Shown: positions 12,678-58,336, counted from the stretch's first letter. The stretch is DNA of 64,000 nucleotides from a virus (IMGVR_UViG_3300033076_000838:111836-175835); one strand, 5' to 3'. Made by a program: numbers and translations. The notes: generated by a model from the letters alone, not told the origin.

Positions 12678-12720
12678 ATTTGGTAATCTCAGCATTCTCT
12701 CCTATCTTAGCTATGTAATC
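12678..12720 (+). promoter_or_regulatory. phage promoter cassette (variant)
   Basis: ATTTGG ... TTAGCTATGTAAT about 10 nt before the ATG at 12733. Confidence 0.45.
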
Positions 12721-12732
12721 AAATGATAAGAT

Positions 12733-12954
12733 ATGTTAGATACAATTAAAATGAAATTCTTTTTGAAGATGAGGGAAATAGAAGAACAACGAGATGAGAC
12801 AATGTCTGACCCTAAGTTCCAACAATGGATGAGGGAGTTGAATGTGAGTCAGTCTTATGAAGACCCTACCTCTAAGATTAACGCAAAGGAGTTACAATCG
12901 CAGTATGGTTATCATGGTGCTAGGGGGTATAAGGGAATAAACTTTAAATTTTAA
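12733..12954 (+). CDS. hypothetical protein
   Basis: ORF track; GC-richer codon usage. Confidence 0.4.
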   Translation: MLDTIKMKFFLKMREIEEQRDETMSDPKFQQWMRELNVSQSYEDPTSKINAKELQSQYGYHGARGYKGINFKF

Positions 12955-12959
12955 TTATA

Positions 12960-13061
12960 TGGGTACGCACATTAGTATTTTAGAAGCAGTGGTCATCGCA
13001 GGTCTAGTCCTATTCGTTTACGTTTTTATTAAGACGTGGATGGAAAAAGATGAGAAATAAT
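12960..13061 (+). CDS. 33-aa single-TM peptide
   Basis: MGTHISILEAVVIAGLVLFVYVFIKTWMEKDEK; not in the ORF track (too short). Confidence 0.2.
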
Positions 13062-13102
13062 TTGGATATATCAGATTTTATTCGTATCTTAGCTTTGTAA
13101 TA
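13060..13102 (+). promoter_or_regulatory. phage promoter cassette (TTTGGATATAT-N-TTCGTATCTTAGCTTTGTAATA)
   Basis: Full consensus copy, but no ORF follows for about 340 nt. Confidence 0.6.
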
Positions 13103-13104
13103 AT

Positions 13105-13330
13105 GATACACCGATTGAGATGTTCTCTAGGAGGTATCTAAGATATAGAACATAAGTCCCTATAGGCGATGAAAGATACTCGGGCAATATCTATTGACAC
13201 TCTATCCGTAGTTGTAGGGGTACACTATGTGGTAGACTAAAAGGGAGGTCCTCTCATTCTCTCCTATCCTAAATGTTCGTTCTGAACTACCCACTCCGAA
13301 GATTGACCTCCGCGGGGTGGGTTTTATTTT
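13105..13330 (+). ncRNA. candidate small noncoding RNA (promoter-to-terminator unit, about 225 nt)
   Basis: A consensus promoter directly upstream and a GC-rich hairpin (CCCACTCCG...CGGGGTGGG) followed by a T-run at 13290-13330; no ORF longer than 25 codons. Confidence 0.4.
13290..13330 (+). terminator. intrinsic terminator
   Basis: A 9-bp GC-rich stem plus TTTTATTTT. Confidence 0.55.
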
Positions 13331-13389
13331 GCCCCTACTATATAGTATGACACATTGTCAGTAAAAAAAATTAAAAAAAGTGATAAAAT

Positions 13390-13442
13390 ATTTGGATATA
13401 TGGAGATTTATTCGTAGGTTAGCTATGTAATAAATGATAAGA
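13390..13442 (+). promoter_or_regulatory. phage promoter cassette
   Basis: TTTGGATATAT...TTCGTAGGTTAGCTATGTAATA upstream of the ATG at 13447. Confidence 0.55.
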
Positions 13443-13446
13443 CACT

Positions 13447-13671
13447 ATGACAAACGAAATGATTAAAAAGGAATTTGATGTGGAATACTTAGTAGATATG
13501 GCGTTAGATTCCCTAAAAGATGGTGATAGTATAGAAGATATGTTAAGATGGGTTCTACTATCTGCCAAGAGTGATGAGTGGTTTGAGGGTAAGTATCCCA
13601 ATAAATGTTCCGATAAGGAGTATGATGGTAATGAGGTTATATTTTACAACATTAAAACAATAGGTCAATAA
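13447..13671 (+). CDS. hypothetical protein
   Basis: ORF track. Confidence 0.45.
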   Translation: MTNEMIKKEFDVEYLVDMALDSLKDGDSIEDMLRWVLLSAKSDEWFEGKYPNKCSDKEYDGNEVIFYNIKTIGQ

Positions 13672-13672
13672 T

Positions 13673-13928: not shown

Positions 13929-13972
13929 ATTTGGATATATCAGAAAAAGGTTGTATGTTAGCTTTGTAATAA
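13929..13972 (+). promoter_or_regulatory. phage promoter cassette
   Basis: AATAATCCATAAAATATTTGGATATAT...TTAGCTTTGTAATA. Confidence 0.55.
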
Positions 13973-13984: not shown

Positions 13985-14215
13985 ATGAATAATATGAACA
14001 CTGCCCTACTAAGTAATCCCAACAATCCCCACTACTTCATATGTGAGGGTGAGATTAACATCATTACAAGAGATACCAACCTAATCGATTTCCTTCCGTT
14101 TAAGGATGCCAAAGAAGCAGGTAAGTATGCTAAGAGTTTAGGTAAAGGCCACTTCGCAGTATTCGCCACTCATTTCGAATGGGAGAAGATGGTAGGATAT
14201 TGGGGCATAAAATAA
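13985..14215 (+). CDS. hypothetical protein
   Basis: ORF track. Confidence 0.45.
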   Translation: MNNMNTALLSNPNNPHYFICEGEINIITRDTNLIDFLPFKDAKEAGKYAKSLGKGHFAVFATHFEWEKMVGYWGIK

Positions 14216-14236: not shown

Positions 14237-14280
14237 ATTTGGATATATCGTATATTCTTCGTATGTTAGCTTTGTAATAA
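14237..14280 (+). promoter_or_regulatory. phage promoter cassette
   Basis: TTTGGATATAT...TTCGTATGTTAGCTTTGTAATA. Confidence 0.55.
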
Positions 14281-14306: not shown

Positions 14307-14888
14307 ATGAAAAGTAAGAAAATCGGTTTGGTAATTGAAGGTATTAAGTTTGAGATTAAGGCGGAGGCGTTAAGAACTACTGATTATTGGGGTAAACCTA
14401 TTGAACCTAAAGTCTATGGTTCTGGTCCTATCGCTGGTGCTATGGTTAAGACATTTGTTAAGACCAAATACCCAAAGGTGGTTTGTTCGGTTAAATCATC
14501 ATCCTTTGCGAATGGTAACTCCTTAGATGTCTATGTTTCCTATCCTAATGGTAGTGAGGTAGAGAGTGAGATTTTCTCTGACATCGCTCGTTTCGCCAAT
14601 GCGTTTGAGTATGGTAGATATAATGGTTGGAATGAGAGTTACGAATCATATGAGGTGAGTGGTTTGAAAACTGATAAGGGAACTGAAATCGAAGCGGGTG
14701 TTAAGTATGTTCATGTAAATAACAAACCTGCCTTTGGTACTCCTGGTGATGTGGTTCGTATGTTAAGAGGTATGATTGCCGGTGAGTATGTATGGGGACC
14801 GATTTCCTTAGAGGAGGCGATTAAGAGAGTTAAGAGTTACAAGGTATCTGATTCTAACATTTCAAAAGCCTTACCTTACCTTGCGTAA
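14307..14888 (+). CDS. hypothetical protein
   Basis: ORF track. Confidence 0.5.
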   Translation: MKSKKIGLVIEGIKFEIKAEALRTTDYWGKPIEPKVYGSGPIAGAMVKTFVKTKYPKVVCSVKSSSFANGNSLDVYVSYPNGSEVESEIFSDIARFANAFEYGRYNGWNESYESYEVSGLKTDKGTEIEAGVKYVHVNNKPAFGTPGDVVRMLRGMIAGEYVWGPISLEEAIKRVKSYKVSDSNISKALPYLA

Positions 14889-16044: not shown

Positions 16045-16112
16045 TGAGTCAATTGTATTGTTAGTGTTACCGAAGATTTGGTTATTTGAAAAATTATTAG
16101 TATATTTGGATT

Positions 16113-16358
16113 ATGAAACATGAGATATTAAAACCTAAACAAAGGGATTGGTTAGAATGGTTATTGGGAGATGGTAGGTATTGGATGGCTATTCATATCA
16201 ACGCACCGGAGAATATAGAACGTATTCGTTGGACTTGTATAAATGGGATATATGAGGTGGGAACTAAACAACTACTCAATTTTCTTTTAATTCGATTTAA
16301 TGAGAATGAGGAGGCTAAGAAGGATTGGAGGAATTTTCAAAAATATAAAACAATGTAA
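16113..16358 (+). CDS. hypothetical protein
   Basis: ORF track. Confidence 0.4.
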   Translation: MKHEILKPKQRDWLEWLLGDGRYWMAIHINAPENIERIRWTCINGIYEVGTKQLLNFLLIRFNENEEAKKDWRNFQKYKTM

Positions 16359-16724
16359 ATGAGAAAGAACTCAATGTGGAGTGCATTAAGAACATCACCC
16401 GTACCAAATCACGTAGAGATGGACCCGATGTATGTTAAGTGGTTAGAAGGTATCGCAAAGATGTGGGGATGGTATAATGGTGTATATGATATTGCACCGG
16501 AATTAGTATGGAGGATGCCGAATGATGGTACGTTTCATAAATCGCACGATGTTCTATTGTTTGAAACCAAAGATATAAGGGAATACCTATCCGATGTCTT
16601 AGATAGGAGGTATTGGAAGGAAGAAGAAAAATATATTCTTAATGGGATACGGAAGTTCTACTTACTAAATCAAAAGTGGGGGATGGATGTAGAAAGGTAT
16701 GTAACAACAATAGTGACCATATAA
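16359..16724 (+). CDS. hypothetical protein
   Basis: ORF track. Confidence 0.4.
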   Translation: MRKNSMWSALRTSPVPNHVEMDPMYVKWLEGIAKMWGWYNGVYDIAPELVWRMPNDGTFHKSHDVLLFETKDIREYLSDVLDRRYWKEEEKYILNGIRKFYLLNQKWGMDVERYVTTIVTI

Positions 16725-16762
16725 TTTGGATATGTGGAAATAATTTCGTATCTTTAGGTATT
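16724..16762 (+). promoter_or_regulatory. phage promoter cassette
   Basis: ATTTGGATATGTGG...TTCGTATCTTTAGG. Confidence 0.5.
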
Positions 16763-16788: not shown

Positions 16789-17076
16789 ATGTCAAACATT
16801 AAAATATATAATCCAAAAACCTTTGAAGCCGGATATAAGTTATATGTGGAACAACGGAGTGGTCTGATGAAAATCCGTAATTGGTTAGTAACTTTGGATA
16901 CGAATTGGACATTACATATTTTTAAAGATACTGACCCTACCATACGAGATGTGTATGGTAAAGATTGGGTAATGGAAGTTATAAATGAGGTAATTACGGA
17001 TAATTTCTATACCGAAAAGCAAAGAGAAATATTAACAGCAATAAGAACCGAATACATTTACAATGCCAGTATATAA
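16789..17076 (+). CDS. hypothetical protein
   Basis: ORF track. Confidence 0.45.
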   Translation: MSNIKIYNPKTFEAGYKLYVEQRSGLMKIRNWLVTLDTNWTLHIFKDTDPTIRDVYGKDWVMEVINEVITDNFYTEKQREILTAIRTEYIYNASI

Positions 17077-17330: not shown

Positions 17331-17585
17331 ATGAGTGGATTAAAAAAAGGAGTATTATTTGTGGCGGTATTACTTTTAGTAGTAACCTTTGTTAGAATGG
17401 TGGCGTTATTCTTACCAAACCCAAAAACCAAATACACTATCTACGCAGCAGATAAAGTATATCACTGCAACCAATTCGATGTAAGTGGTAATACCATCTA
17501 CTTTAAAGATGTAAACAAAAAGAATGTTTGTATCAACGGAAACTACACCCTTATTTACGAAACCGAAGATAAAATTAAAGAATAA
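17331..17585 (+). CDS. small membrane-anchored protein
   Basis: N-terminal TM segment. Confidence 0.4.
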   Translation: MSGLKKGVLFVAVLLLVVTFVRMVALFLPNPKTKYTIYAADKVYHCNQFDVSGNTIYFKDVNKKNVCINGNYTLIYETEDKIKE

Positions 17586-18076
17586 TGGAAGAGAAAGATG
17601 AATTAGGTATAAAATATACCGATATGTTGGCGGAGATAGCAAAATACTTAGATGAACTCAAAGCCCCATCATCAGAATCGTATTATCATTTTGAAGACGG
17701 AGATGATATATTCGGAGATAACACGGGCATCATAAACCAAGTCCTTAACTCCGGCACTACCATCACCTATGATAAAGAACATACCTTAACAAGAGATAAA
17801 GGTTATTTCGTTTATTGGTTGATGATGAACTTTGCGTTCTTAGAAGACCATGGCTTCAAATCTAAATATAATATTGACCCAGCAAAGATAAGTACTGGTT
17901 GGGGAAGAAGCATTCTTCATTCAGGTACCTACAATAACACCGATAAGGCATTCTTACAGGAGGTAAGTGAATGGATGAAAGAAAAAGATTGGGTTTACAA
18001 AAAACCTATCCTTAATGAACATAACGACACCTTACCCCTTATTCAACGCCTACCAATAGAAGCAATGAAACTATAA
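17585..18076 (+). CDS. hypothetical protein
   Basis: ORF track. Confidence 0.45.
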   Translation: MEEKDELGIKYTDMLAEIAKYLDELKAPSSESYYHFEDGDDIFGDNTGIINQVLNSGTTITYDKEHTLTRDKGYFVYWLMMNFAFLEDHGFKSKYNIDPAKISTGWGRSILHSGTYNNTDKAFLQEVSEWMKEKDWVYKKPILNEHNDTLPLIQRLPIEAMKL

Positions 18077-18843: not shown

Positions 18844-19110
18844 ATGGATTTAAAGAACGCAATTGAAGGTAAAACTTATACGGTCTTATGTGTGCCTCGA
18901 AATGAACCTTGTCAGAATTGTACCCCTTGTCTCAAATTGAAGATAATGGAAATGGGGATATACCCATCCGAACGTATCTTAATGGAAGGAAAGAGATTAG
19001 GTATATGGATAGTTAAAATATTAGATGGTAGGGGTAATGTAACATCCACCCTTGCAATGAGGGAAAATGAGGTAGAAGGAATTGAAGTAGAAGAATATTT
19101 GGATATATGA
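18844..19110 (+). CDS. hypothetical protein
   Basis: ORF track; its 3' end overlaps the next promoter. Confidence 0.4.
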   Translation: MDLKNAIEGKTYTVLCVPRNEPCQNCTPCLKLKIMEMGIYPSERILMEGKRLGIWIVKILDGRGNVTSTLAMRENEVEGIEVEEYLDI

Positions 19111-19136
19111 AATATTCTTCGTATATTAGCTAAATA
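19097..19136 (+). promoter_or_regulatory. phage promoter cassette
   Basis: TTTGGATATATGAAATATTCTTCGTATATTAGCTAAAT. Confidence 0.5.
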
Positions 19137-19146: not shown

Positions 19147-19740
19147 ATGAATAGTAAACTATTATCAGATTTTGCAAAACCAACGATTATAACCGGTCAA
19201 CAATATGGTACGAAGATTTCCGTAGAAATAGACCATAGTGATACTGACATCGATGAGTTATTCGATGCATTCCGAACACTTGTGATTGGATTAGGTTATT
19301 CCGATACAACATGGAAACAATGTATAATGGAAAGAGCCGAAGAGTATAATGATGAGGAAAATGAAATTTTACAATCCCAAAAAGATAGGGAAACATTCTT
19401 TGATGCAATAACCAATCCAACCCAACCAACTCAAGATGCGATAGATGTAATTGAAAGGTATGTTGCTGGTTTAGATGTATCCCAAATAGATGATGCCCTT
19501 AATGAACATAATGAAAATGAGTGGAATGATGAGATGGAGAAACGATATTGGGAGAATGAAGGTAATGAACATATGCCACCGGAGTTAGAAGAACAATTTT
19601 GGAACGAACAACCACCAGAACCATTTGCAACACCAGAAGAGGTAGAAAAGTATAACATAGATGGTGAGTTTGATGATTATGGTAAACGTATAGTTAAAAC
19701 CACAAAGAAGGTTGGTAGACGAGGAATCAAAAAGAAATAA
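19147..19740 (+). CDS. acidic hypothetical protein
   Basis: ORF track; Glu/Asp/Asn-rich. Confidence 0.45.
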   Translation: MNSKLLSDFAKPTIITGQQYGTKISVEIDHSDTDIDELFDAFRTLVIGLGYSDTTWKQCIMERAEEYNDEENEILQSQKDRETFFDAITNPTQPTQDAIDVIERYVAGLDVSQIDDALNEHNENEWNDEMEKRYWENEGNEHMPPELEEQFWNEQPPEPFATPEEVEKYNIDGEFDDYGKRIVKTTKKVGRRGIKKK

Positions 19741-19741
19741 G

Positions 19742-20254
19742 ATGAAAGTAATATTTTTGGATATAGATGGTGTATTAAATCACGAGGCATTTTACAAAGA
19801 ACGTCACGAAAGACGTGATGAAGAATGTGTGTGGGAACATCCGTATTCAGAAATAGACCCAAAAGCCGTAAGTAATCTAAACACACTATGCGATGAAACT
19901 GATGCTAAGATTGTTATATCATCAACGTGGAGACATTACGGATTGGAGTATTGTAAAGATGTATTAGAGAAGATGGGATTTACTGGTGAAATAATTGACA
20001 TAACACCATCCCACCAATCGAGATTCAGAGGTTTAGAAATTTTAGATTGGGTAAAAAGTAATGAAGAACTAATCGGTGATAGGTATTTTAACTTTACCGA
20101 ATATGTTATATTAGATGATGATTCCGATATGTTATATTGGCAACGAAATAATTTCCTTTTGATTGACCGATTTGTTGGTTTAACTATGGGAGATGTGTTT
20201 AGAGCAAAAAGAATTTTAAACGGAGGGAAGATTTTAAAAGTGAGTGAATTATGA
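19742..20254 (+). CDS. HAD-superfamily phosphatase-like protein (DxDGV)
   Basis: MKVIFLDIDGVLN matches HAD motif I; start trimmed to the ATG after the upstream stop. Confidence 0.5.
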   Translation: MKVIFLDIDGVLNHEAFYKERHERRDEECVWEHPYSEIDPKAVSNLNTLCDETDAKIVISSTWRHYGLEYCKDVLEKMGFTGEIIDITPSHQSRFRGLEILDWVKSNEELIGDRYFNFTEYVILDDDSDMLYWQRNNFLLIDRFVGLTMGDVFRAKRILNGGKILKVSEL

Positions 20255-20841
20255 AAGTAATATTTTTAGACCACGATGGTGTTATTTGTTTAGCAACTGA
20301 ATGGGGTGGTAGATTTAAGAAACAACGAAATGTAGGTAGGAAACTATCTCAATCCGTATTGTCCTTACCAGTCAGTGCAAGATTTGATAATTTTAATAAG
20401 AAAGCAATTATTGTATTAAATGAGATATTGGAAGAAACTAACGCTGATATTGTTGTCTCGTCTGATTGGAAAAGATGGGCAAGTGTTGAGGAGATGGGTG
20501 AGTATTATGAATCACAGGGCATCAAAAAGAAACCGATAGCATTCACAAAGACAGTAGGTGAATGTACGAACTACAATCCACATACGTTTCAATGGTCACC
20601 AAAATGGATGTTAGAACAAGAAAGAGCATTGGAGATTGACCAATTTTTAATAGACCACCCAGAGATTACGAATTGGGTAGCAGTGGATGACCTTAATATG
20701 GGTATTCCACAAACACACGAAACTTGGGGTGAGATGGAAATGGATTGGGGTTTAACTAATTTTGTACACACACCTAAGAGTAGAGAAGGAATTAAACAAT
20801 CAAATATAAAAGAACAAATAATTAAATTTTTAAATAACTAA
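20251..20841 (+). CDS. HAD-superfamily phosphatase-like protein, paralog
   Basis: MKVIFLDHDGVI N-terminus. Confidence 0.5.
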   Translation: MKVIFLDHDGVICLATEWGGRFKKQRNVGRKLSQSVLSLPVSARFDNFNKKAIIVLNEILEETNADIVVSSDWKRWASVEEMGEYYESQGIKKKPIAFTKTVGECTNYNPHTFQWSPKWMLEQERALEIDQFLIDHPEITNWVAVDDLNMGIPQTHETWGEMEMDWGLTNFVHTPKSREGIKQSNIKEQIIKFLNN

Positions 20842-20843
20842 CT

Positions 20844-21233
20844 ATGGGAAGATTTGCTAACACAAAATCGATGATTTACACCAAACAAAGGGTGAGAACT
20901 TTAAATGCAAAACGTTTAACCGCGATGCCACCATCTGGTGATGTTAGTAAAGTTGATGCATATAGACAGAAATTAGGTAAGTTATTGGCTGCAGGACATT
21001 TAAAGATTAATGGATTTAGTTCGATGCAGATACAAAAAGAACCACATTTTTTAGAACATGGTGTTACTATCAGACGTGAGCTTACATTTAGTAATGTAAT
21101 AAATCATAAAGGTGGGGGAGATGCTCCACATCTTACTGGTTACTTAGAAAGTGGTAATGAGATTGATTCTAAATATAAAATTAAAGGATGGTTCAACGAA
21201 GATGGGACAATCCGTATTGAATTAGTAAATTAA
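20844..21233 (+). CDS. hypothetical protein
   Basis: ORF track. Confidence 0.45.
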   Translation: MGRFANTKSMIYTKQRVRTLNAKRLTAMPPSGDVSKVDAYRQKLGKLLAAGHLKINGFSSMQIQKEPHFLEHGVTIRRELTFSNVINHKGGGDAPHLTGYLESGNEIDSKYKIKGWFNEDGTIRIELVN

Positions 21234-21242
21234 AGATAATAT

Positions 21243-21815
21243 ATGATAAAGTTAAAAAATCTTATTAAAGAAGAAAAAGAACCTGTATATGAATATGGGT
21301 GTGCAATGTTATATTTTGAACCCAATAATGAGGTTGTTGAGTTTCAAAAGACAATTAGACCAGAAGATATTTACACCGAAGATAAGAATGGTGGGTATGG
21401 ATTGGAAACTGAACCACACTGCACTCTATTGTATGGATTACACGAGGAAGTGGAATTAGAAGATGTTAAGAATGTATTAGATAATATTGTGTTTGGATAT
21501 TGTAGAATACATAACCCATCACTTTTTGAGAACGAAAAGTTTGATGTATTAAAGTTTGATGTTGGTTATACTCATAAAGGTGGTGCGTTTTTACATAATG
21601 CCAACCGATTGTTAAACAATTTACCAAATACACAAACATATCCAGATTACCACCCACATATGACGGTTGCGTATTTGAAGCCGGGAATGGGTAAAAAGTA
21701 TGTTGAAAGTTTAGGTGGTGTTCCTGCGTTTATATACAAACCAACACATTTAGTATATTCACAATCAGATGGAACTAAAACTGAAATTACATTACGTCAA
21801 AATAAAAATAAATAA
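21243..21815 (+). CDS. 2H phosphoesterase (LigT / cyclic phosphodiesterase-like)
   Basis: Two H-x-T/S-x motifs: HCTLLYGL and HPHMTVAY. Confidence 0.55.
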   Translation: MIKLKNLIKEEKEPVYEYGCAMLYFEPNNEVVEFQKTIRPEDIYTEDKNGGYGLETEPHCTLLYGLHEEVELEDVKNVLDNIVFGYCRIHNPSLFENEKFDVLKFDVGYTHKGGAFLHNANRLLNNLPNTQTYPDYHPHMTVAYLKPGMGKKYVESLGGVPAFIYKPTHLVYSQSDGTKTEITLRQNKNK

Positions 21816-21816
21816 T

Positions 21817-22179
21817 ATGAAAAGGGAGTATAAGGATTTTATTATTCGAGCTCTATATTTTACAATACCATCATCTGGTCCTGGTCTTAGGGATTGGGTA
21901 GGTAGAAGATTTTTTGACAAGTTTGGTATTCAACCTGATAAGATTGATGTACTACAAGAAGATAAATACACAAAGAGTGATAATGTATCAGAAACAAGTT
22001 GGATTGGGAAACTAACATTATCCCTAACGATTGATGGTGAAACATTTTCCCTAACAAGAGATTGGGAAGCAGAGTATGAATATGATACTAAACATCCTTG
22101 TTACAACGATGATTATTACTACGAATCAGAGGTCTGCCATTCAGTTATAACAGCAAAGGAGTTACTTAGAAACTTATAA
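21817..22179 (+). CDS. hypothetical protein
   Basis: ORF trimmed to the ATG following the upstream stop. Confidence 0.4.
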   Translation: MKREYKDFIIRALYFTIPSSGPGLRDWVGRRFFDKFGIQPDKIDVLQEDKYTKSDNVSETSWIGKLTLSLTIDGETFSLTRDWEAEYEYDTKHPCYNDDYYYESEVCHSVITAKELLRNL

Positions 22180-22182
22180 GGT

Positions 22183-23245: not shown

Positions 23246-23304
23246 TCCCCTTTTATTTGGATTTCTCAATTATTTTTTGTATCTTTACACAATAAGAAAA
23301 AGAT

Positions 23305-28091: not shown

Positions 28092-28105
28092 GTAATTGAT
28101 AATCA

Positions 28106-28131
28106 ATGGGTTGTAAAATAACCCATTTTTT
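28106..28131 (+). terminator. intrinsic terminator
   Basis: ATGGGTT-GTAAAAT-AACCCAT hairpin plus T-run, immediately followed by a promoter. Confidence 0.5.
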
Positions 28132-28132
28132 A

Positions 28133-28167
28133 TTTGGATATATCCCAAAAAGTTTGTATATTAGCAG
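28133..28167 (+). promoter_or_regulatory. phage promoter cassette
   Basis: ATTTGGATATATCCC...GTTTGTATATTAGCAG. Confidence 0.5.
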
Positions 28168-29059: not shown

Positions 29060-29533
29060 ATGAATTATTTAGATGAATTTCTTAACCCAACCGAACCAAT
29101 TCGTACCAATTCAAATGTGGATGAGTATTTAGAAACCGGCAAATCTTTACGAAGATTGGTAGATGAATATACAAAGTATGGGTCATTATGTATTGGTTTT
29201 GATTTTGATGGCACGGTCTATGATTATCATAAGACTGGTGCAAAGTATGACCAAGTAATTGACCTATTGAGAGATTTAAAAGAATTGAATTGTACGTTGA
29301 TTTGTTGGACAGCTCAAAAGGATTTAATCTTTGTCGAGGAATTCTTAATAGATAACAACATTCCGTTTGATGGTATAAACACCGATGGAATCAATTTAGG
29401 TTGGGAGAGTAGAAAACCTTTCTTTTCAGCCCTATTAGATGATAGAGCCGGGTTGAAACAGGTCTATGAAGACCTCTACAAATTGGTAAATATTATGAAA
29501 AAACGTATCGATAAATTTGGTAATACCAAATAA
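29060..29533 (+). CDS. HAD-like hydrolase (DFDGT)
   Basis: CIGFDFDGTVYDYH is HAD motif I; LLDDRAG is motif IV-like. Confidence 0.45.
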   Translation: MNYLDEFLNPTEPIRTNSNVDEYLETGKSLRRLVDEYTKYGSLCIGFDFDGTVYDYHKTGAKYDQVIDLLRDLKELNCTLICWTAQKDLIFVEEFLIDNNIPFDGINTDGINLGWESRKPFFSALLDDRAGLKQVYEDLYKLVNIMKKRIDKFGNTK

Positions 29534-29552
29534 AAGTTGTATATTAGCTTTA
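29515..29552 (+). promoter_or_regulatory. phage promoter cassette (variant)
   Basis: AAATTTGG ... GTTGTATATTAGCTTTAT. Confidence 0.4.
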
Positions 29553-32945: not shown

Positions 32946-33422
32946 ATGGCATTAGTATTAAAGCCAAGTATGGAAGGGGTGGATAGATTTCCAACCCCTA
33001 CCATATTTTTAGCAGGTTCAATCGAAATGGGAGCCGCTGAGAATTGGCAAGAACGAATAGAAAGAGAATTCAAAGATGAAGAGGTTACATTCTTCAATCC
33101 ACGTAGAGATGATTGGGATAGTAGTTGGTCACATACGAGTGAACAATTCAACACACAAGTAAATTGGGAATTAAATGCATTAGATGATTCGGATATTATC
33201 TTTATGTATTTTTCACCCGAAACTAAATCACCAATTTCTTTATTAGAATTAGGATTATATGCAGACCATCACAAAATGATTGTAGTTTGTCCTGATGGAT
33301 TTTGGAGAAAGGGTAATGTAAGTGTAGTTTGTACACGATATTCAATTCCGATGTTTAACACAATTCAGGAAGGTATATTTGCTTTACGAACAGCCGTTAG
33401 AAAAAATCAAACATTATATTAG
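32946..33422 (+). CDS. nucleoside 2-deoxyribosyltransferase-like protein
   Basis: IFLAGSIE ... SLLELGLY blocks are typical of the NDT-like fold. Confidence 0.45.
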   Translation: MALVLKPSMEGVDRFPTPTIFLAGSIEMGAAENWQERIEREFKDEEVTFFNPRRDDWDSSWSHTSEQFNTQVNWELNALDDSDIIFMYFSPETKSPISLLELGLYADHHKMIVVCPDGFWRKGNVSVVCTRYSIPMFNTIQEGIFALRTAVRKNQTLY

Positions 33423-33424
33423 GA

Positions 33425-33452
33425 TATTTGAAAAATTTTTCGTATATTTGTA
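33425..33452 (+). promoter_or_regulatory. phage promoter (short form)
   Basis: ATATTTGAAAAATTTTTCGTATATTTGTAAT. Confidence 0.4.
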
Positions 33453-34598: not shown

Positions 34599-35118
34599 AC
34601 CAACTGCATTAAATCACAACGATTCCAAAGATAGAATCATTGCAACTCATTTCTTACAAGAAAGAGGTTGGTATGATATTGAGGAAGGTGGTGAGTTTGA
34701 ATTAGATTTAATTGTTCCAAAATTCAAACGTGGAGCAGATGTAGAATGTTTTAAGGGTGATATTAATACATTCAAAACTGATGGGTATTTTAGAATTCCA
34801 TTTAGAAAACAAAAGTATTGGAGTGGCGAACCCACTTACATAGATAATGGTGATAGTCAACAAATTAATCCTTACAAAGATTGGTTAGTTGACTATATCC
34901 AATTTTGTAATTCAGGTACCGATGAATTACTTTGGTATAACTACAAACTTGTAAAACACTATCATAAAAACATAATTGAGTGGAAGGGTTTATATAAAAA
35001 GAATTTTATAGGCAATCAAGCTAAATTTATAAAAATACCATATGAAGATGGTATAAAGTATATTCAAAGATGGAAACTGATTAATGGAAGGTGGACAAAA
35101 ATAGATTTGGTAAAGTAA
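34585..35118 (+). CDS. hypothetical protein
   Basis: ORF track. Confidence 0.45.
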   Translation: MIHTKPTALNHNDSKDRIIATHFLQERGWYDIEEGGEFELDLIVPKFKRGADVECFKGDINTFKTDGYFRIPFRKQKYWSGEPTYIDNGDSQQINPYKDWLVDYIQFCNSGTDELLWYNYKLVKHYHKNIIEWKGLYKKNFIGNQAKFIKIPYEDGIKYIQRWKLINGRWTKIDLVK

Positions 35119-35140
35119 AAAATATTTCGTATCTTTGTAA
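35105..35140 (+). promoter_or_regulatory. phage promoter (short form)
   Basis: GATTTGG...TTCGTATCTTTGTAAA. Confidence 0.5.
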
Positions 35141-40364: not shown

Positions 40365-40406
40365 ATTTGGAAATATCAGCTTTATTTCGTAGTTTAGCTT
40401 TGTAAT
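40365..40406 (+). promoter_or_regulatory. phage promoter cassette
   Basis: AATAATCCATAAAATATTTGGAAATATCAG...TTAGCTTTGTAATA. Confidence 0.55.
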
Positions 40407-41938: not shown

Positions 41939-42115
41939 CTATAAGCTCTTACTTATACTCTTTTTATTTAACTTTATCAGCTTCTAGTTTTAAAGCTCTT
42001 TTATAATTATTAGCTTTTCAGAAAATTTATAACACTTTTTTCAAAAAAAGTTATTAACATATTAAATATTCATAATATGTTGATAATCAATCCCTTATAA
42101 ATCCAATAAAATAAA

Positions 42116-42152
42116 TTTGGAAATATGGGGATTTTTTCGTAATTTAGTCTTA
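42116..42152 (+). promoter_or_regulatory. phage promoter cassette (variant)
   Basis: AAATTTGGAAATATGGGG...TTCGTAATTTAGTCTTAT. Confidence 0.45.
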
Positions 42153-45109: not shown

Positions 45110-45310
45110 ATGACACTACAAGACATCAGCAGAAAATATAGAATTTCTGACAACTATTTAAGTTCAAAAGAAGATGCATTAATCGTTACTGCAGCATCTA
45201 TAAACGATTTGATTGAAGAATTACAACCAATCAACGGAACAACAAGTGTAACGGAAAAAATGCAACGATTAGTGGATTTTTTACAAGATGTAAAAAATTC
45301 TACATTTTAA
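45110..45310 (+). CDS. small hypothetical protein
   Basis: ORF track. Confidence 0.4.
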   Translation: MTLQDISRKYRISDNYLSSKEDALIVTAASINDLIEELQPINGTTSVTEKMQRLVDFLQDVKNSTF

Positions 45311-45346
45311 TTTGGAAAATTAAAAAACTTTTCGTATCTTTGTATA
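45310..45346 (+). promoter_or_regulatory. phage promoter (short form)
   Basis: ATTTGGAAAATTAAAAAACTTTTCGTATCTTTGTATAAA. Confidence 0.5.
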
Positions 45347-47276: not shown

Positions 47277-47314
47277 ATTTGGAAATATGAAAACTATTTC
47301 GTATCTTTACAAAG
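47277..47314 (+). promoter_or_regulatory. phage promoter (short form) driving the initiator tRNA
   Basis: GATTTGGAAATATGAAAACTATTTCGTATCTTTACAAAG. Confidence 0.5.
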
Positions 47315-47417: not shown

Positions 47418-47442
47418 CTAAATAAAAAAACTTTAAAAAAGA

Positions 47443-47479
47443 TTTGGAAATATGAAAACTATTTCGTATCTTTACAAAG
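47443..47479 (+). promoter_or_regulatory. phage promoter (short form), duplicate
   Basis: Identical to the 47277 copy. Confidence 0.5.
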
Positions 47480-47535
47480 TAAAAGAAACCAACCAAACAA
47501 CACAACTATTTTTTAACAATTTAAACAATTAGTAT

Positions 47536-47694
47536 ATGACAAAGTTTTGGAAGTGGTTCGAAAAGTATGGATTTTTAGTTTTAGGTATTAGTAACCTATT
47601 ATGTTTTAATCCTTACAATGCAGTAATTGGGTTAGTATTTATTACCTGGTTTATTGTAGACAAAAAAAATAATAAAAAAGATTTGGAAAATTAA
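47536..47694 (+). CDS. small TM protein (52 aa)
   Basis: MTKFWKWFEKYGFLVLGISNLLCFNPYNAVIGLVFITWFIV...; its 3' end overlaps the next promoter. Confidence 0.3.
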   Translation: MTKFWKWFEKYGFLVLGISNLLCFNPYNAVIGLVFITWFIVDKKNNKKDLEN

Positions 47695-47719
47695 AAAAGT
47701 TTTCGTATCTTTACAAAGT
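47682..47719 (+). promoter_or_regulatory. phage promoter (short form) preceding the ORF-free RNA region
   Basis: GATTTGGAAAATTAAAAAAGTTTTCGTATCTTTACAAAG. Confidence 0.5.
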
Positions 47720-47759
47720 AATCAAACGGATTACAAAAAACGTTCTTTAAAATTATTGA

Positions 47760-49195
47760 AAATATTGTACATAGTAGACTTGTTCTACATAGTACATACC
47801 CGCCGCATATGGTGGTTAAATAAACTTGGAAACAAGGATAAAGTGAATACAATGGTTATTGTGTTTGCGGTTTCATCTTCGGATGGAGCTTGAGTATGCA
47901 AGTGGAATATCATTAGACCTGATTAGTGAGGGTAACTCCGTAGTGAAATGGTTTGATGACTGGGCTCTAGTAGAAGTTCAGTTGAGGTAGGAATATCAAT
48001 AAGAATAATCCATAGAGTTATTGCAAGAAGTAAGGACTTAATCTCTCCTTATCATTGCGTGATTCAATATTAGAGGTTGCTTAAAACCGAAAGGTATGTT
48101 GATGTACAGGTGGTGCTGTTATTTACCTTACCTACATCTCACCAAAGAGTGGGTAATGAAGTAATCTTAAAGTATGACGTTAGAGATAACGTATCGAGTA
48201 GTATAGTATTCCGTTCTTCAAAATGGAACGGAGCTAGTGGTAATCCACTACTTGAATTCATCTACAACCAAAACTCAATTTGCTATTGGTGCAAACTATA
48301 AACAAATAAAGAGAAAGAGGTTACCAGTTGCAGACGAAAGGTGTGTACATAGTAGGGAGTTGTTCCCTGCCACAAATCCCCTCAAAGGAGATGTGATTCT
48401 TTCGAAAAGCTTCTAGCACTGCGAGGTGTTAATCGGGTCGGCGGATTCGAAGAGGTAGAGTACGAAGAGAGTAGTTTGTAACTTTATGAGTGGTAGGCAT
48501 TACTTACCCACATTGAATTGGTACTTCTCAAAAGGAAGTGGAAATTAAGGCAACCCATAACCCTTATAAAGCTGGTTCACAATATGGAGTATTCTCATCC
48601 TTATATTTTTACAATGGTTGTATATTGGTTCGATTCCAATAGTAAAAGCTTCGTAGTGGTTTACGCCAGATTGGTTCGATGTACCTTCGAATAACTGAAT
48701 ACCACTTAAAATAAAAAAGAAAAAAGGTATAATGGTATGGTTTTCCGTAGGGGATTTTCGCCTTAAAGAATCTCAATGATACGAATTTAATTGATGGTAA
48801 GTAACGGATGTAGCTAGTCCTTTGAAAGAACCACCCTACAAAATCTTTCTTTTTTAAACGAACTAATCCTTCGAGGCTTATATTAACCAGAGCATGACTT
48901 GGATGGAGTATTTTGAAGATGGATTAGTTTTTTTATTTAGCTAATAACAAAAAAACAAACAAACGTTACGAAAAAATAATTTTTAGATATTTATAACAAG
49001 ATGAAAAACTTAGCATTACATACAAACAACCAATTACCTACACAAAGACGTGAGTGGGCTGGGAATTGTATGTTTAGTACGATAGTCCTTCCGCAAGCAG
49101 AATTGAATTTTGGCAAGGTAGATTATATTAGTACTCCGTTAAGGGAAGCATCAGGTTGGTAATGATGTAAGATTTAAATAGAAAATATTTGAAGA
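47760..49195 (+). ncRNA. candidate large structured noncoding RNA (about 1.4 kb ORF-free, GC-richer region inside the tRNA array)
   Basis: Promoter at 47682 and terminator at 49197-49229. No ORF longer than 75 aa on either strand. UUCG and GNRA-type hairpins such as CATCTTCGGATG, and tRNA-like T-loop fragments such as ATTGGTTCGATTCCAAT at about 48617. Confidence 0.4.
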
Positions 49196-51207: not shown

Positions 51208-51214
51208 ACAAATG

Positions 51215-51252
51215 TTTGGATATATTAAAATAAATTCGTATATTTGTTAAAC
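51215..51252 (+). promoter_or_regulatory. phage promoter cassette
   Basis: TGTTTGGATATATTAAAATAAATTCGTATATTTGTTAAAC. Confidence 0.5.
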
Positions 51253-51279: not shown

Positions 51280-51350
51280 CGCGAGGGGGAGGTAAGGTAT
51301 TTCATTGGTCTCATAAGCCAAACTAAGTGGGTTCGATTCCCACCCTACGC
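51280..51350 (+). tRNA. tRNA with CAT anticodon (Met or Ile2 type); acceptor and D arms imperfect
   Basis: Anticodon stem TTGGT/GCCAA, loop CTCATAA, T arm GTGGG-TTCGATT-CCCAC. Confidence 0.45.
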
Positions 51351-51371
51351 AACAAAAAAATGTTAAAAAAG

Positions 51372-51409
51372 ATTAGGAAATTTAAAAATTATTTCGTATC
51401 TTTACAATG
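51372..51409 (+). promoter_or_regulatory. phage promoter (short form) driving tRNA-His
   Basis: GATTAGGAAATTTAAAAATTATTTCGTATCTTTACAATG. Confidence 0.45.
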
Positions 51410-51439
51410 TTCTTTGAGATGATGGTTAGTAAGTAATAT

Positions 51440-51514
51440 GGTGTTTGTAGCTCAACTGGTTAGAGCATCCGATTGTGGTTCGGAAGGTTGTGAGTTCGAA
51501 ACTCATCATTCACC
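51440..51514 (+). tRNA. tRNA-His (GTG) with G-1; acceptor has U4-U69 and U5-U68 mismatches
   Basis: Extra 5' G pairing with C73; D arm GCTC/GAGC; loop TTGTGGT. Confidence 0.65.
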
Positions 51515-51587
51515 CAAGGGGTTTTCAGTCCCAAGTGCTGGTTAGATGAAACACGCTATCCGTATGAGCCCATCAAAACTGAAACTT

Positions 51588-51659: not shown

Positions 51660-51962
51660 CAAGACATACATCAGCCACATTAATTCCTTCAACCATATTG
51701 AGAGGTTAGTGTATGTTTAGGTAAGAGAGAAGAAGTGGTTGGGACATCTCTTTTACCGATAATATTGTATCAAATGTGCAGTGAAAATTGATGTAGGCAT
51801 ACATTGATGAGGTGGGTTCGATTCCCGTTTAATAATTCTTAGGTCAAAAGCCGGAGGAAGAAGCCAAGTAATTGAGAACACATTATAGCCGGAGTGGGTG
51901 TGCACCTCGTCTAGAGACCCTAATAGTTCCTAATAGGTCGGTATGGAACTGATACATAATTT

Positions 51963-52035: not shown

Positions 52036-52329
52036 CGAGTGGATTCATCAGTTGATGAAAACCAATCGGGGGTTGTCCCACTAGAATGGAAACATCCCCT
52101 GCAAATAATGGCTCTATAATTGTTGAGGTCGCACCAAAAGCAATGAGTGGGTGAATGATGATTGAATGTAGCAATCTCCTTAATACTAGGATTGGAGTGT
52201 AAAATTGTTCATACATTTAGTAAGTAGTTCATAAGATGGGTTCGATTCCCATTAGAGTCTCAATGATTACTGAAATTGAATGATACGAGTCCTCAAAGTT
52301 CGAAAAGAGTCAGGCAGTAATCGTTATTT

Positions 52330-55778: not shown

Positions 55779-55792
55779 GTAGTTGATAATGA

Positions 55793-55818
55793 ATGGGTTA
55801 GAAAATAACCCATTTTTT
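55793..55818 (+). terminator. intrinsic terminator (near-duplicate of the 28106 copy)
   Basis: ATGGGTT-AGAAAAT-AACCCAT plus T-run. Confidence 0.5.
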
Positions 55819-55857
55819 ATTTGGAAAATCCAAAAAAACATCGTATATTAGCATATA
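55819..55857 (+). promoter_or_regulatory. phage promoter cassette
   Basis: TATTTGGAAAATCC...CATCGTATATTAGCATAT. Confidence 0.45.
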
Positions 55858-56219
55858 TGAATAAGAGAGATATTTCCCAAATAATTCACCAATACTTTGA
55901 TAAGATAGTTTCACATTATGGGTATTCATCCCATCATACTGAAACGCCCTGGTTGGTTATTGAGGATTCTCCATATTCAGATGCTGATGATAAAGATATA
56001 ATCGGTGAGTATTGTGCGATGGATAATGAGTTGATTGTGTATTGGAAAAACATCAAAGATACGGAAGAGTTGATTAAAACTCTTATTCATGAATATCAAC
56101 ATTATTTACAATCTCCTTCATGGATGACACGTTATTACAAAATGGGGTATGATTATCATAATCATCCATACGAAACTATTGCCTACGAAAGAGAGAAAGA
56201 TTATAAATTATTTATATGA
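55821..56219 (+). CDS. small HExxH (zincin-like) protein, paralog of 35151-35561
   Basis: HEYQHYLQSPSWMTRYYKMGY...HPYE. Confidence 0.45.
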   Translation: MENPKKHRILAYMNKRDISQIIHQYFDKIVSHYGYSSHHTETPWLVIEDSPYSDADDKDIIGEYCAMDNELIVYWKNIKDTEELIKTLIHEYQHYLQSPSWMTRYYKMGYDYHNHPYETIAYEREKDYKLFI

Positions 56220-56581
56220 AAACAAAGCAATTCAAAAGCGAATTTAACCCAACATTAGAAGTTGCAATAATGGGAAAAGATGATTTCCGTTATGAGATTA
56301 TTAAACCTATGTTTGAGGAATATGGTTTTGGATTTATCTTACCTGCATTTAATTTAATCGTAATGGATGGTGAATTGAAGTTAGGTAAAGACATTTATAA
56401 ATTTATCGAGGCGCATGAAGTTGCACATTATATGTTAGGTCATACCGAACATCATAATTCAGATGATGAAATTATGGCTGATAGATTAGCTCATAAAATG
56501 TTGGATGGTAAGGGATATAAAAAATCGGCACAATTGGTAATTGATAAGTTCGAAGAAAGACACGGAATAAAATTTTATTAA
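56216..56581 (+). CDS. small HExxH protein (ImmA/IrrE-like motif)
   Basis: EAHEVAHYMLGH. Confidence 0.4.
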   Translation: MKTKQFKSEFNPTLEVAIMGKDDFRYEIIKPMFEEYGFGFILPAFNLIVMDGELKLGKDIYKFIEAHEVAHYMLGHTEHHNSDDEIMADRLAHKMLDGKGYKKSAQLVIDKFEERHGIKFY

Positions 56582-56585
56582 AAAT

Positions 56586-56624
56586 ATTAGGATATATGAA
56601 AATAATTTCGTATGTTAGCTGAGT
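56586..56624 (+). promoter_or_regulatory. phage promoter cassette
   Basis: ATTAGGATATATGAAAATAATTTCGTATGTTAGCTGAGTAATA. Confidence 0.5.
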
Positions 56625-56638
56625 AATAAGAACACACT

Positions 56639-57061
56639 ATGGGTAAATATAAATTCAAAAATCGCAAGTTTCCAATTCAGTTTCAGAAAGTAGTTGATTA
56701 CATCAATAACCTAAAAGGTATTGAGGTTTCCCTTTCTAACTCTACTTGTTTTATGGGACACTTTAATAGACAGATTTTCATTCATCACAATTACGATTTG
56801 AATGAGAATGGATTATTTGCTTTACTACATGAATGTGGACATGCATTACAACCGGTAAATAATGTTGGCTGTAATGCTTACAAAAACATCGATAATGATG
56901 AACATCCAAAAGAATTTATGATGGGTCAATTCTTAAATGAATTAGATGCATGGAATAGAGGATGGGATATTGCTCAAAAATTAAACCTTAAAATAAATGT
57001 TAAACAATTTGAAAAAGAAAAACAAATGGCTTTACTTACCTATTTTACTACTACTTGCTAG
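56639..57061 (+). CDS. small HExxH protein
   Basis: LLHECGHALQP. Confidence 0.4.
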   Translation: MGKYKFKNRKFPIQFQKVVDYINNLKGIEVSLSNSTCFMGHFNRQIFIHHNYDLNENGLFALLHECGHALQPVNNVGCNAYKNIDNDEHPKEFMMGQFLNELDAWNRGWDIAQKLNLKINVKQFEKEKQMALLTYFTTTC

Positions 57062-58238
57062 TTGTACTAAGGAAGATATACCAACTCCACAACCGATACC
57101 ATCGGTAGTAAATACTGATAAACTAAAACAATCTACTACAATTTATAATGAAAGTGTTTTTAATCAAGAAAACAATTTAGGTTGGTATAGTTCTCATTTA
57201 GGAAATACTCCTACAAAAGATGTTGCAGTTGGTGTTGCGTATTTTGATTTTAATGGAGATTCGGAAATGGATATGTTACTTAAAAACGCTAGTAGTGGTA
57301 TATTTGAATTTTGGATTAAATCGGGTAATACCTACATAAAAGAAGATTACACTAAGGGTAAGATTATCCAATTAAAAGGAACGCGTAGAATTATTACCAC
57401 CGATATAAATGGGGATAAGTATGTAGATTTCGTATTAGCATTAGCAGATGATAATGATTTTACACAACGAGGATTATATTTTCTTAAAGGTGATAAAGAT
57501 GGGTTTGAACTGATTCAATATTCAAACGATAGTAAAGATTTTTATCATGGTGCCACTGCAGGAGATGTAAATAAAGATGGTAAAATAGATATTATACTTT
57601 CCGGCCCAACTTATTTCTTAGCAGGAAATGGTGATTTTACATTTTCAAAAATAGATTGGCCTACACAAATGTTAGAAATGGGTGGGTTGGGTTTATATTT
57701 TGGAGCAGCATGTATGGATTTGGTTGATTTAAATAAAGATGGATATTTGGATTTGATTAGAGGATTTCATAATAACAAAGACGAACAGCCAGGAAATTTA
57801 TATGGTAAATCTATGATAATTAATTTTGGCAAATCTGATTATCCGTACTTTGGAGAAAAACAATACTTGGAAACGATAGAACCAAATTCAAACGTTACGT
57901 TAGATTTTGCTTTCTATGATTACGATAAAGATGGTGATATAGATATTTTTTCAAATAGTAATTTTGATTATAACGATGAATACTATATTCAGTATTTTGA
58001 AAATAATTCAGGCAAATTTTCCAATAAAACCAAAACAATATTTGATGGGGATTCGTATAAAGTTTTTAACCATTATGCAATTGATTGGATTAAAGTATGT
58101 GATTGGGATAAGGATGGTAATGTTGAAATCTTAATAGAAGGTAAGAATCATAAAAGAGAAAATGGCGTATGGGTAGAACCCAATTTTAACTCATTTAAGA
58201 TGGGAACAAGTGGTAAATTTTTACAATATAAGTTTTAA
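56997..58238 (+). CDS. lipoprotein with FG-GAP / beta-propeller-type Asp-rich repeats
   Basis: Lipobox LLLASC; repeated D-x-[DN]-x-DG blocks (DINGDKYVD, DVNKDGKID, DLNKDGYLD, DYDKDGDID, DWDKDGNVE). Confidence 0.5.
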   Translation: MLNNLKKKNKWLYLPILLLLASCTKEDIPTPQPIPSVVNTDKLKQSTTIYNESVFNQENNLGWYSSHLGNTPTKDVAVGVAYFDFNGDSEMDMLLKNASSGIFEFWIKSGNTYIKEDYTKGKIIQLKGTRRIITTDINGDKYVDFVLALADDNDFTQRGLYFLKGDKDGFELIQYSNDSKDFYHGATAGDVNKDGKIDIILSGPTYFLAGNGDFTFSKIDWPTQMLEMGGLGLYFGAACMDLVDLNKDGYLDLIRGFHNNKDEQPGNLYGKSMIINFGKSDYPYFGEKQYLETIEPNSNVTLDFAFYDYDKDGDIDIFSNSNFDYNDEYYIQYFENNSGKFSNKTKTIFDGDSYKVFNHYAIDWIKVCDWDKDGNVEILIEGKNHKRENGVWVEPNFNSFKMGTSGKFLQYKF

Positions 58239-58297
58239 TTGATAATCAACTAGTTACATATTATGATAAAAAAAGTTTCTAAATAGATAAGAAAATG

Positions 58298-58336
58298 TTT
58301 GGATATATGAGAAATTCTTCGTATATTAGCTGTATA
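58298..58336 (+). promoter_or_regulatory. phage promoter cassette
   Basis: TGTTTGGATATATGAGAAATTCTTCGTATATTAGCTGTATAAG. Confidence 0.5.

Follow-up and report, generated by a model that had tools for sequence, protein, structure and literature searches.

A putative Bacteroidota-type promoter cassette occurs 25 times in DNA of a probable uncultured jumbo phage

What is the short element that recurs across 46 kb of a 64,000-nucleotide (nt) stretch of viral DNA, IMGVR_UViG_3300033076_000838:111836-175835 (hereafter the window), which RNA polymerase would read it if it is a promoter, and does its conservation call for a factor made by the phage? A preliminary description, made without database searches, had read this element, here called the cassette, as a promoter of the Bacteroidota type (TTTG at -33, TAnnTTTG at -7) and had proposed that an additional phage factor recognizes it. 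Based on the analyses below we conclude that the 25 cassettes are most probably strong promoters read by host RNA polymerase carrying the Bacteroidota primary sigma factor (sigma-A / sigma-ABfr), and we find that the proposed phage factor is not needed to account for the conservation.

A copy is present at all 22 of the positions listed initially, and a relaxed regular-expression search for TT(T/A)G-N17-22-TAnnTT(T/A)(G/A) added three more (12386, 16077 and 23256, copies being named after, and aligned on, the first T of TTTGG), giving a family of 25 members that all lie on the + strand between 12386 and 58331 (Table 1). Their alignment yields the consensus A-TTTGG-A(A/T)AT(A)T-(G/C)A-aaa-t-tTTCG-TAT-n-TT-(A/T)(G/A)-C, with an A-tract about 15-20 nt upstream of TTTGG. 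The distance from TTTG to TA is 20 nt in 25 of 25 copies, equivalent to a fixed 15 nt from TTTGG to TTCGTA, so that the variable spacer of 12-15 nt given earlier was wrong; likewise, the copy placed at 33425 exists, its true register being 33419 with TTAGG as the -33 element. The copies had been called near-identical, which is correct within subfamilies (47278 equals 47443 over about 45 nt in family D2) and incorrect for the family as a whole. The -33 element is TTTG in 22 copies and TTAG in three, and the next base is always G; in the -7 element of the aligned copies TA and TT never vary, the final dinucleotide is TG in five, TA in seven and AG in 13, and every copy matches TAnnTTTG at 7 or 8 of the 8 positions.

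When the 25 members were scored leave-one-out with a position weight matrix of 35 nt, they reached 23.3-42.6 bits, compared with 6.3 bits (+ strand) and 9.8 bits (- strand) for the best non-members in the window and with a maximum that averaged 10.0 bits, and never exceeded 19.6, in 100 Markov-1 simulated sequences of 64 kb. A search for TTCGTATNTTWRC with one mismatch allowed returned 21 matches against 2.8 +/- 1.6 expected. No cassette was found in the first 12.3 kb, a tightly packed block with sugar-modifying enzymes, or between 58.4 and 64 kb, where genes lie on the - strand from 60.9 kb onward. Inside ORF 14307-14888 (ORF, open reading frame), a cassette-like site at 14733-14766 (TTTGGTACTCC...TTCGTATGTTAA) has a spacer 2 nt longer than that of the family; it could have arisen by chance or act as a weak promoter within the gene.

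The position of the cassettes relative to genes fits that of promoters. The cores of 21 of the 25 copies lie wholly outside ORFs, and those of the other four extend 4-18 nt into the 3' end of the ORF before them. A distance of 10-30 nt to a start codon or transfer RNA (tRNA) had been described for each copy; the observed range is wider. Among the 17 copies that precede a protein gene and leave room for a normal leader, the -7 box lies 13-37 nt from the ATG in 16 and 61 nt from it at 47443; the distance is only 4-5 nt at 16077 and 55820, whose messenger RNAs, as the sequence reads, may be leaderless or nearly so, while cassettes 47278, 51215 and 51373 lie 34-36 nt ahead of tRNA-Met(CAT), a second tRNA-Met(CAT) and tRNA-His, respectively. 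Two further statements of the preliminary description were borne out, namely that copies stand directly ahead of tRNA-fMet and tRNA-His (47278 and 51373) and that three copies are clustered (47278-47713). The tRNA-Met(CAT) at 47346-47418 can be assigned as the initiator because direct reading of its sequence reveals a C1xA72 mismatch together with a GGG/CCC anticodon stem. A start codon or tRNA does not follow every copy, since 47682 precedes a GOLLD RNA, and no ORF of at least 40 amino acids (aa) is present in the roughly 250 nt after 12386 and after 13061. These two ORF-free stretches (12422-12665 and 13097-13335) gave no Rfam match at E up to 1 and folded no more stably than shuffled controls (z = -1.35 and -0.35); they may encode small RNAs or short peptides.

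A Shine-Dalgarno-like motif stands before 5 of the 108 genes, a lower share than the 9% of random windows; upstream of start codons A prevails, occupying -3 in 60% and -12/-11 in about 70%. This combination of Shine-Dalgarno depletion and A-rich upstream regions fits the translation signals of Bacteroidota.

Does the motif itself point to the same hosts? The primary-sigma consensus of Bacteroidota (Bayley 2000, Vingadassalom 2005 and Chen 2007, as summarised in PMC6847099, PMC7366714 and PMC9723704) consists of TTTG at -33 and TAnnTTTG at -7, the latter since revised to TAHHTTTG, with AT-rich blocks at about -28 and -18 and a start site 4-5 nt past the -7 box (PMC6847099, PMC7366714, PMC9723704). 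Sigma-70-type sites were not enriched (81 against 98.6 expected; 96 against 96.7 expected). We scanned for the extended motif TTTGG-WWAW-N11-TTCGTAT-N-TT-W-R, which includes positions beyond this host core. At least 120 stretches from cellular genomes matched, and 71 of the 80 record titles listed were Bacteroidota, including Bacteroidales, Prevotella, Flavobacteriales, Chitinophagaceae, Sphingobacterium, Kapaibacterium and others, and eight titles came from other phyla; several of the matches in other phyla appear to fall in coding sequence. Viral contigs contributed at least 119 stretches, of which 79 have no homolog of the window ORFs in the fetched DNA, and some contigs hold many copies (13 within 13.6 kb of the 412-kb contig L234, seven in L227). 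When the spacer was lengthened by 2 nt as a control, two scans gave 1 and 8 stretches, the 8 being viral and to be compared with the at least 119 at the correct spacing.

For comparison with host promoters, we collected independent TTTG-Nx-TAnnTTTG sites from 835 kb of mostly Bacteroidota chromosomal DNA, excluding the matches by which the DNA had been selected. There were 58 sites at x=20, 29 at x=19 and 6-12 at other spacings. Among the 58 sites, A precedes TTTG in 76%, G follows it in 60% and C follows the -7 box in 83%; an AT-rich block is succeeded by C/G and an A-rich spacer, and T, T, C and G are the top or joint-top bases at -16 to -13. The cassettes share with Bacteroidota primary-sigma promoters both boxes, the 20-nt spacing at the host optimum, the AT-rich blocks at about -28 and -18, a conserved purine (RTAA) 4-5 nt downstream of the -7 box, which is the expected start position, and A-rich leaders without a Shine-Dalgarno sequence. 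They differ in an information content much above that of host promoters: the -33 element, weak in host promoters and undetected in F. johnsoniae, is near-invariant and extended to ATTTGG in the cassettes, and TTCG at -16 to -13 is nearly fixed. Spacing, strand, intergenic location, distances to ATG or tRNA and the chromosomal matches of the motif all agree with the original proposal of Bacteroidota-type promoters and a Bacteroidota host.

These observations also bear on whether the repeat is a promoter at all. The element could instead be selfish, or be bound by a protein that acts in replication, packaging or silencing. Its strict co-orientation with the genes, its fixed distances to ATG codons and tRNAs, its close agreement with host promoters in both boxes and in spacing, and the presence of the motif at ordinary Bacteroidota chromosomal promoters make any such reading highly improbable.

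Is a phage factor required in addition to the host sigma factor? This had been suggested because conservation extends well beyond the core elements, the positions concerned being the A before TTTG and the G after it, the AT-rich block, the C/G, the A-rich spacer, the T-rich sequence and TTCG before TA, and the C after the -7 box. The suggestion finds no support, given that the same flanking preferences are present in weaker form in the 58 independent chromosomal promoters and that the extended motif occurs in the 79 viral stretches without a detected homolog of the window ORFs. Because independent host promoters show this weaker form, the extended conservation can be explained as that of an optimized host promoter, with no extra factor needed. 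No sigma, RNA polymerase or transcription-factor domain was detected in the 60 window ORFs scanned, and both host elements are kept in the cassettes, unlike in factor-dependent promoters, in which a phage box usually replaces one host element.

Several points weigh against regarding all copies as ordinary sigma-A promoters. Exact TAnnTTTG is present in only 5 of the 25 copies (7 have TTTA and 13 TTAG), and TAnnTTAG(C) alters the near-invariant T at -6; moreover, 5 of the 13 TTAG copies also carry G at -10 or -9, a base virtually absent at these positions from the promoters of Flavobacterium johnsoniae (PMC6847099). In scans allowing TTTG, TTTA, TTAG and TTAA equally, TTAG accounted for 3 of 121 genome matches, 22 of 138 viral matches and 13 of 25 window copies, and because it is rare in genome matches, half of the copies are not textbook host promoters. 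In addition, the host comparison set is mostly from gut Bacteroidales, with each stretch picked for one perfect motif, and the 60 ORFs scanned for factors belong to a window that is about a quarter of the phage genome, so that a phage sigma factor or polymerase modifier might be encoded in the remainder.

The TTAG class has its own flanks, as it is associated with GGATATAT after the -33 element (8 of 13 copies, versus 1 of the other 12), and its members at the left end have AAAAAGTGA..AAATA in common farther upstream. All five cassettes directly ahead of a tRNA or the GOLLD RNA have the TTTAC or TTTGT form. One might therefore imagine that part or all of the family, and the 13 TAnnTTAGC copies in particular, constitute a separate temporal class dependent on the phage, which would supply a factor (for instance a sigma-like protein or a sigma appropriator) or modify the polymerase, much as the middle promoters of T4 depend on MotA and AsiA. 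The enrichment of TTAG in phage DNA, the change at a near-invariant host position, the five copies with G at -10/-9, the class-specific flanks, the use of the other form ahead of tRNA and GOLLD genes and the retention of TTAG at orthologous positions in the related contig L096 would all accord with such a class. Yet both forms agree in the -33 element, in the spacing and at all remaining positions, whereas factor-dependent phage promoters usually replace one element; the two forms interchange, in that the promoter of the nicotinamide phosphoribosyltransferase gene reads TATATTAG in the window and TATATTTG in its L090 orthologue; no candidate factor was detected in the 60 ORFs; and the flanks could reflect descent from one duplicated cassette. 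On this evidence we consider it unlikely that TAnnTTAGC is read poorly by the host sigma-A in its unmodified state and depends for its activation or timing on a modifier of the Bacteroidota polymerase that the phage encodes. If it did, Bacteroidota phages would have their first described temporal promoter switch, and the TTTG/TTTAC class, which precedes tRNA-fMet, the second tRNA-Met(CAT), tRNA-His and GOLLD, would be constitutive or immediate-early. The TTAG class could also be weaker or differently timed, or just share a common origin by duplication. The sequence TAGCTTTG, located 5 nt downstream, was considered as the true -7 box of the TTAGC class and rejected, as it is present in only 4 of the 13 copies.

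If the cassettes are promoters, are they maintained at their sites? The same cassette occurs in the closest relatives (contigs L009-L023, L089-L092 and L096), with a TTCTTATCTTTGTA variant in L137, and six cassette positions are orthologous between the window and L096. The copy ahead of the nicotinamide phosphoribosyltransferase gene is found in the same place in L089/L021, L096/L011 and L090, and its peculiarities, GTTG for TTCG and a CCAAATAAAAG spacer, are kept in L089/L021 and L096/L011. Over aligned positions, this promoter shares 88-93% identity with its L089 and L096 orthologues, compared with 71% at third codon positions of the adjacent gene, which indicates purifying selection. More distant relatives (L094, L097, L099-L104, L108, L110, L124, L138/L139 and L162) keep the -7 box TATATTTAC upstream of the nicotinamide phosphoribosyltransferase gene and have the -33 half replaced, most of them carrying TTGTTAATAACTTT and then a hairpin or T-run; this arrangement may be a second cassette type or a regulated promoter. 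No close relative was found by DNA among isolated phages, the RNA ligase protein reaching a best identity of about 28%, and IMG/VR contains a large family of relatives with contigs of up to 230-290 kb. From the size of these contigs and the lack of a close isolate, we infer that the window comes from an uncultured jumbo phage of roughly 230-290 kb.

The closest known analogue is the promoter-early stem-loop (PeSL) cassettes of T4-type phages, which number about 50 per genome, consist of a consensus sigma-70 promoter with an AT-rich upstream region and a terminator stem-loop, precede ORFans in hyperplastic regions and serve as recombination points (PMC2839356, PMC4122927). The cassettes resemble PeSLs as multiple copies of a consensus host promoter (25 in 46 kb here) with an A-tract or AT-rich sequence upstream, mostly placed before ORFs without a family match in a region variable between relatives; a minority also share the fused terminator, and two copies lie at rearrangement junctions. 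They differ in promoter type (Bacteroidota -33/-7 instead of sigma-70 -35/-10), in having no Shine-Dalgarno element and in the stem-loop, a component of the PeSL that is evident at only a minority of cassettes. The hairpins at 28105-28127 and 55791-55815 have T-runs that run directly into the TTTGG of the next cassette, and in L096 and L089 the stem of the former stays paired across a G:C to A:T change. Cassettes 40366 and 13391 likewise have terminator-like hairpins ahead of them; at most copies none is evident. Modules combining stop codons, a terminator hairpin and a promoter occur twice in the window and again in relatives.

Near some cassettes we also observed a palindrome, (A/G)TTGATAATCAA(T/C), at 23219-23231, 28095-28107, 42079-42091, 55782-55794 and 58238-58250, that is 37-38 nt upstream of TTTGG at four cassettes and 60 nt upstream at the fifth; at 28133 and 55820 it lies inside TAAGTAATTGATAAT, which carries a stop codon in every reading frame. 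The palindrome may serve as an operator or only as a translational stop module.

Comparison with L096 revealed two junctions at cassette edges: in L096 the gene at window 38741-39058 is inserted exactly at the 3' edge of the RNA ligase cassette, and the window-specific ORF 18844-19110 abuts cassette 19098. Recombination between PeSLs leads to indels and swaps and produces mini-circles; the two junctions here are suggestive of a similar shuffling and too few to claim it. In addition to their role as promoters, the cassettes might double as short homology patches for gene gain, loss and swap, with cassette copying explaining the similarity over 50-75 nt. The two junctions, the composite modules, the placement before ORFans in a region that varies between relatives, as for PeSLs, and the fact that subfamilies share 45-75 nt including flanks without a known promoter role (for example, family D2) speak for this possibility. 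Conversely, only 2 of about 10 rearrangement junctions seen lie at cassettes, orthologous cassettes are more alike than paralogous ones with no sign of ongoing homogenization, and most copies are without a stem-loop, leaving us rather doubtful of such an added role.

Taking the cassettes as optimized sigma-A promoters, we propose the following scheme. The host sigma factor would contact (A)TTTGG at -33 and TAnnTT(T/A)(G/A) at -7, a constant 20 nt apart, the A-tract at about -55 to -38 may act like an UP element, and the AT-rich blocks at about -28 and -18 and TTCG at -16 to -13 would represent host flanking preferences driven near consensus. Transcription would start at the conserved purine (RTAA) following the -7 box and would produce short, A-rich leaders lacking a Shine-Dalgarno sequence. 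Each copy would head a small transcription unit, of about four genes on average, in the auxiliary gene region, and the terminator hairpins fused to some copies would insulate the units from each other. T4 early promoters surpass host promoters in their match to the consensus, add an A-rich upstream element and out-compete host promoters for the unmodified host polymerase. The better-than-host consensus and the A-rich upstream element are shared with the cassettes, while host phylum and sigma specificity differ; Alt-like modification of the polymerase belongs to the T4 side of the comparison, and we saw no sign of it here. A literature search found no earlier description of such cassettes in Bacteroidota phages.

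A particular case is cassette 47682, which precedes the match to the 3' domain of GOLLD RNA. In four phage contigs (the window, L016, L021 and L227), the cassette lies 498-531 nt ahead of the Rfam GOLLD match, and L227 has no ORF homolog of the window in the fetched DNA. In the alignment of the four contigs, the cassette is followed by a short leader that varies, and conservation is strong from AAACGTTCTTTAAA (about 47738) on. GOLLD RNAs are longer than 800 nt and are conserved in their 3' half, less so in their 5' half (PMC12286853). Since a transcript of about 880 nt (47718-48601) would fit this size and these halves, cassette 47682 is predicted to be the GOLLD promoter.

Other observations concern the surrounding RNA genes. 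The order of tmRNA (transfer-messenger RNA), promoter cluster with tRNA-fMet, GOLLD and tRNA array recurs in three other phage contigs. The phage-encoded tmRNA (46771-47116, tag peptide GVNNYALAA) has homologues in the same position in L016, L021 and L227; a literature check of its tag against Bacteroidota tags (GENNYALAA) found nothing, and the tag was not used as evidence. L021 has a weak tRNA match right after GOLLD (17770-17840), to which a T-arm-like sequence at 48619-48640 in the window may correspond. Further T-arm-like sequences (GGTTCGAWTCC) with acceptor-like tails, at 46715-46756, 51807-51830 and 52231-52253, were not called by the tRNA finder and may be degenerate or unusual tRNAs. 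The sequence AACGTTCTTTAAAAT has only two exact copies, just before tRNA-fMet (47324-47338) and at the conserved start of the GOLLD 5' domain (47739-47753), and near-copies 2 nt before the tmRNA (46754-46768) and 20 nt before tRNA-His (51406-51420). With three mismatches allowed it was found 19 times against 10.3 expected, weakly above chance, and it may be a shared leader or processing signal of RNA genes.

The auxiliary gene region in which the cassettes lie contains ORFans, genes for nicotinamide adenine dinucleotide (NAD) salvage and RNA repair, 25 tRNAs, one tmRNA and one GOLLD RNA. A NAD and nucleotide salvage block (28188-33422) includes a ribose-phosphate pyrophosphokinase-like gene, nicotinamide phosphoribosyltransferase, a 624-aa SPFH/Band 7 protein and a nucleoside 2-deoxyribosyltransferase-like protein. 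The RNA-repair set (19712-27138 and 33468-37433), made up of RNA ligase, cREC_REC, two HAD_SAK, two metallophosphatases, an AAA_33 kinase and a 2'-5' RNA ligase-like protein, adjoins the tRNA array and is consistent with defence against host anticodon nucleases. Other genes of the window include PhoH and many ORFans. Between the cassette-free left block and the first cassette, about 0.7 kb (11710-12385) of unusual composition and without a convincing + strand ORF may be a module boundary.

Table 1. Positions of the cassettes and associated features (window coordinates unless another contig is named; TTAGC class, copies with TAnnTTAGC as -7 element)
Feature	Position	Strand	Remarks
Cassette 12386	12385..12419	+	-7 TACCTTTA; 315 nt downstream without ORF of at least 40 aa
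Possible non-coding transcript after cassette 12386	12422-12665	+	
Cassette	12678..12712	+	TTAGC class; precedes ORF 12733-12954
Cassette 13061	13060..13094	+	TTAGC class; 13097-13335 ORF-free, terminator-like hairpin 13306-13321 at its end
Cassette 13391	13390..13424	+	TTAGC class, -7 TAGGTTAG; precedes ORF 13447-13671
Cassette	13929..13963	+	TTAGC class; precedes ORF 13985-14215
Cassette 14238	14237..14271	+	TTAGC class; precedes ORF 14307-14888
Cassette 16077	16076..16110	+	exact TATATTTG; ATG of ORF 16113-16358 4 nt past -7 box
Cassette	16724..16758	+	TATCTTTA; precedes ORF 16789-17076
Cassette 19098	19097..19131	+	TTAGC class; precedes ORF 19147-19740; orthologous copy L096:887
Cassette 23256	23255..23289	+	TATCTTTA; precedes ORF 23305-23904; orthologous copy L096:4568
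Terminator hairpin	28105..28127	+	T-run continues into -33 TTTGG of cassette 28133
Cassette 28133	28132..28166	+	TTAGC class; precedes ribose-phosphate pyrophosphokinase-like gene 28188-29048
Cassette	29515..29549	+	TTAGC class, GTTG for TTCG; precedes nicotinamide phosphoribosyltransferase 29575-31047
Cassette 33419	33418..33452	+	-33 TTAGG, -7 TATATTTG; precedes RNA ligase 33468-34598; orthologues L016:518, L096:13936
Cassette	35105..35139	+	TATCTTTG; precedes ORF 35151-35561
Cassette 40366	40365..40399	+	TTAGC class, TAGTTTAG; precedes ORF 40432-40692; terminator-like hairpin 40313-40325 upstream
Cassette	42115..42149	+	TAATTTAGT; precedes ORF 42166-42411
Cassette	45310..45344	+	TATCTTTG; precedes ORF 45368-45796
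Cassette 47278	47277..47311	+	TATCTTTAC; 36 nt before tRNA-Met(CAT) 47346-47418
Cassette 47443	47442..47476	+	precedes 52-aa ORF 47536-47694 or an RNA of no known type
Cassette 47682	47681..47715	+	predicted GOLLD RNA promoter; predicted start near 47718
Predicted full-length GOLLD transcript	47718..48601	+	about 880 nt
GOLLD RNA 3' domain, window	48194-48601	+	Rfam RF02032, 261.5 bits; follows cassette 47682
Cassette and GOLLD match, L016	8032; 8530-8939		
Cassette and GOLLD match, L021	16853; 17351-17762		
Cassette and GOLLD match, L227	5202-5233; 4293-4702	-	
Cassette 51215	51214..51248	+	TATATTTG; 34 nt before tRNA-Met(CAT) 51281-51351
Cassette 51373	51372..51406	+	-33 TTAGG, TATCTTTAC; 36 nt before tRNA-His 51441-51515
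Terminator hairpin fused to cassette 55820	55791..55815	+	paralogue of 28105-28127
Cassette 55820	55819..55853	+	TTAGC class; ATG 55857 5 nt past -7 box
Cassette	56586..56620	+	-33 TTAGG, TTAGC class; precedes ORF 56639-57061
Cassette	58297..58331	+	TTAGC class; precedes 5'-nucleotidase-like gene 58365-58844

By analogy, the cassettes would be the Bacteroidota counterpart of the well-known takeover of host transcription by big phages, a result that is useful for annotation and unsurprising. They sharpen the extended Bacteroidota consensus to ATTTGG-N15-TTCG-TAnnTTTG, which is only faint in host data, and may serve as candidate strong, compact promoters for Bacteroidota genetic tools. The predicted promoter and 5' end of GOLLD, a giant cage-forming RNA, would aid its expression or deletion in a Bacteroidota system. 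For the phages themselves, the cassettes would provide an operon map for 46 kb of otherwise anonymous genes and allow a large family of uncultured jumbo phages to be assigned to Bacteroidota hosts from sequence alone.

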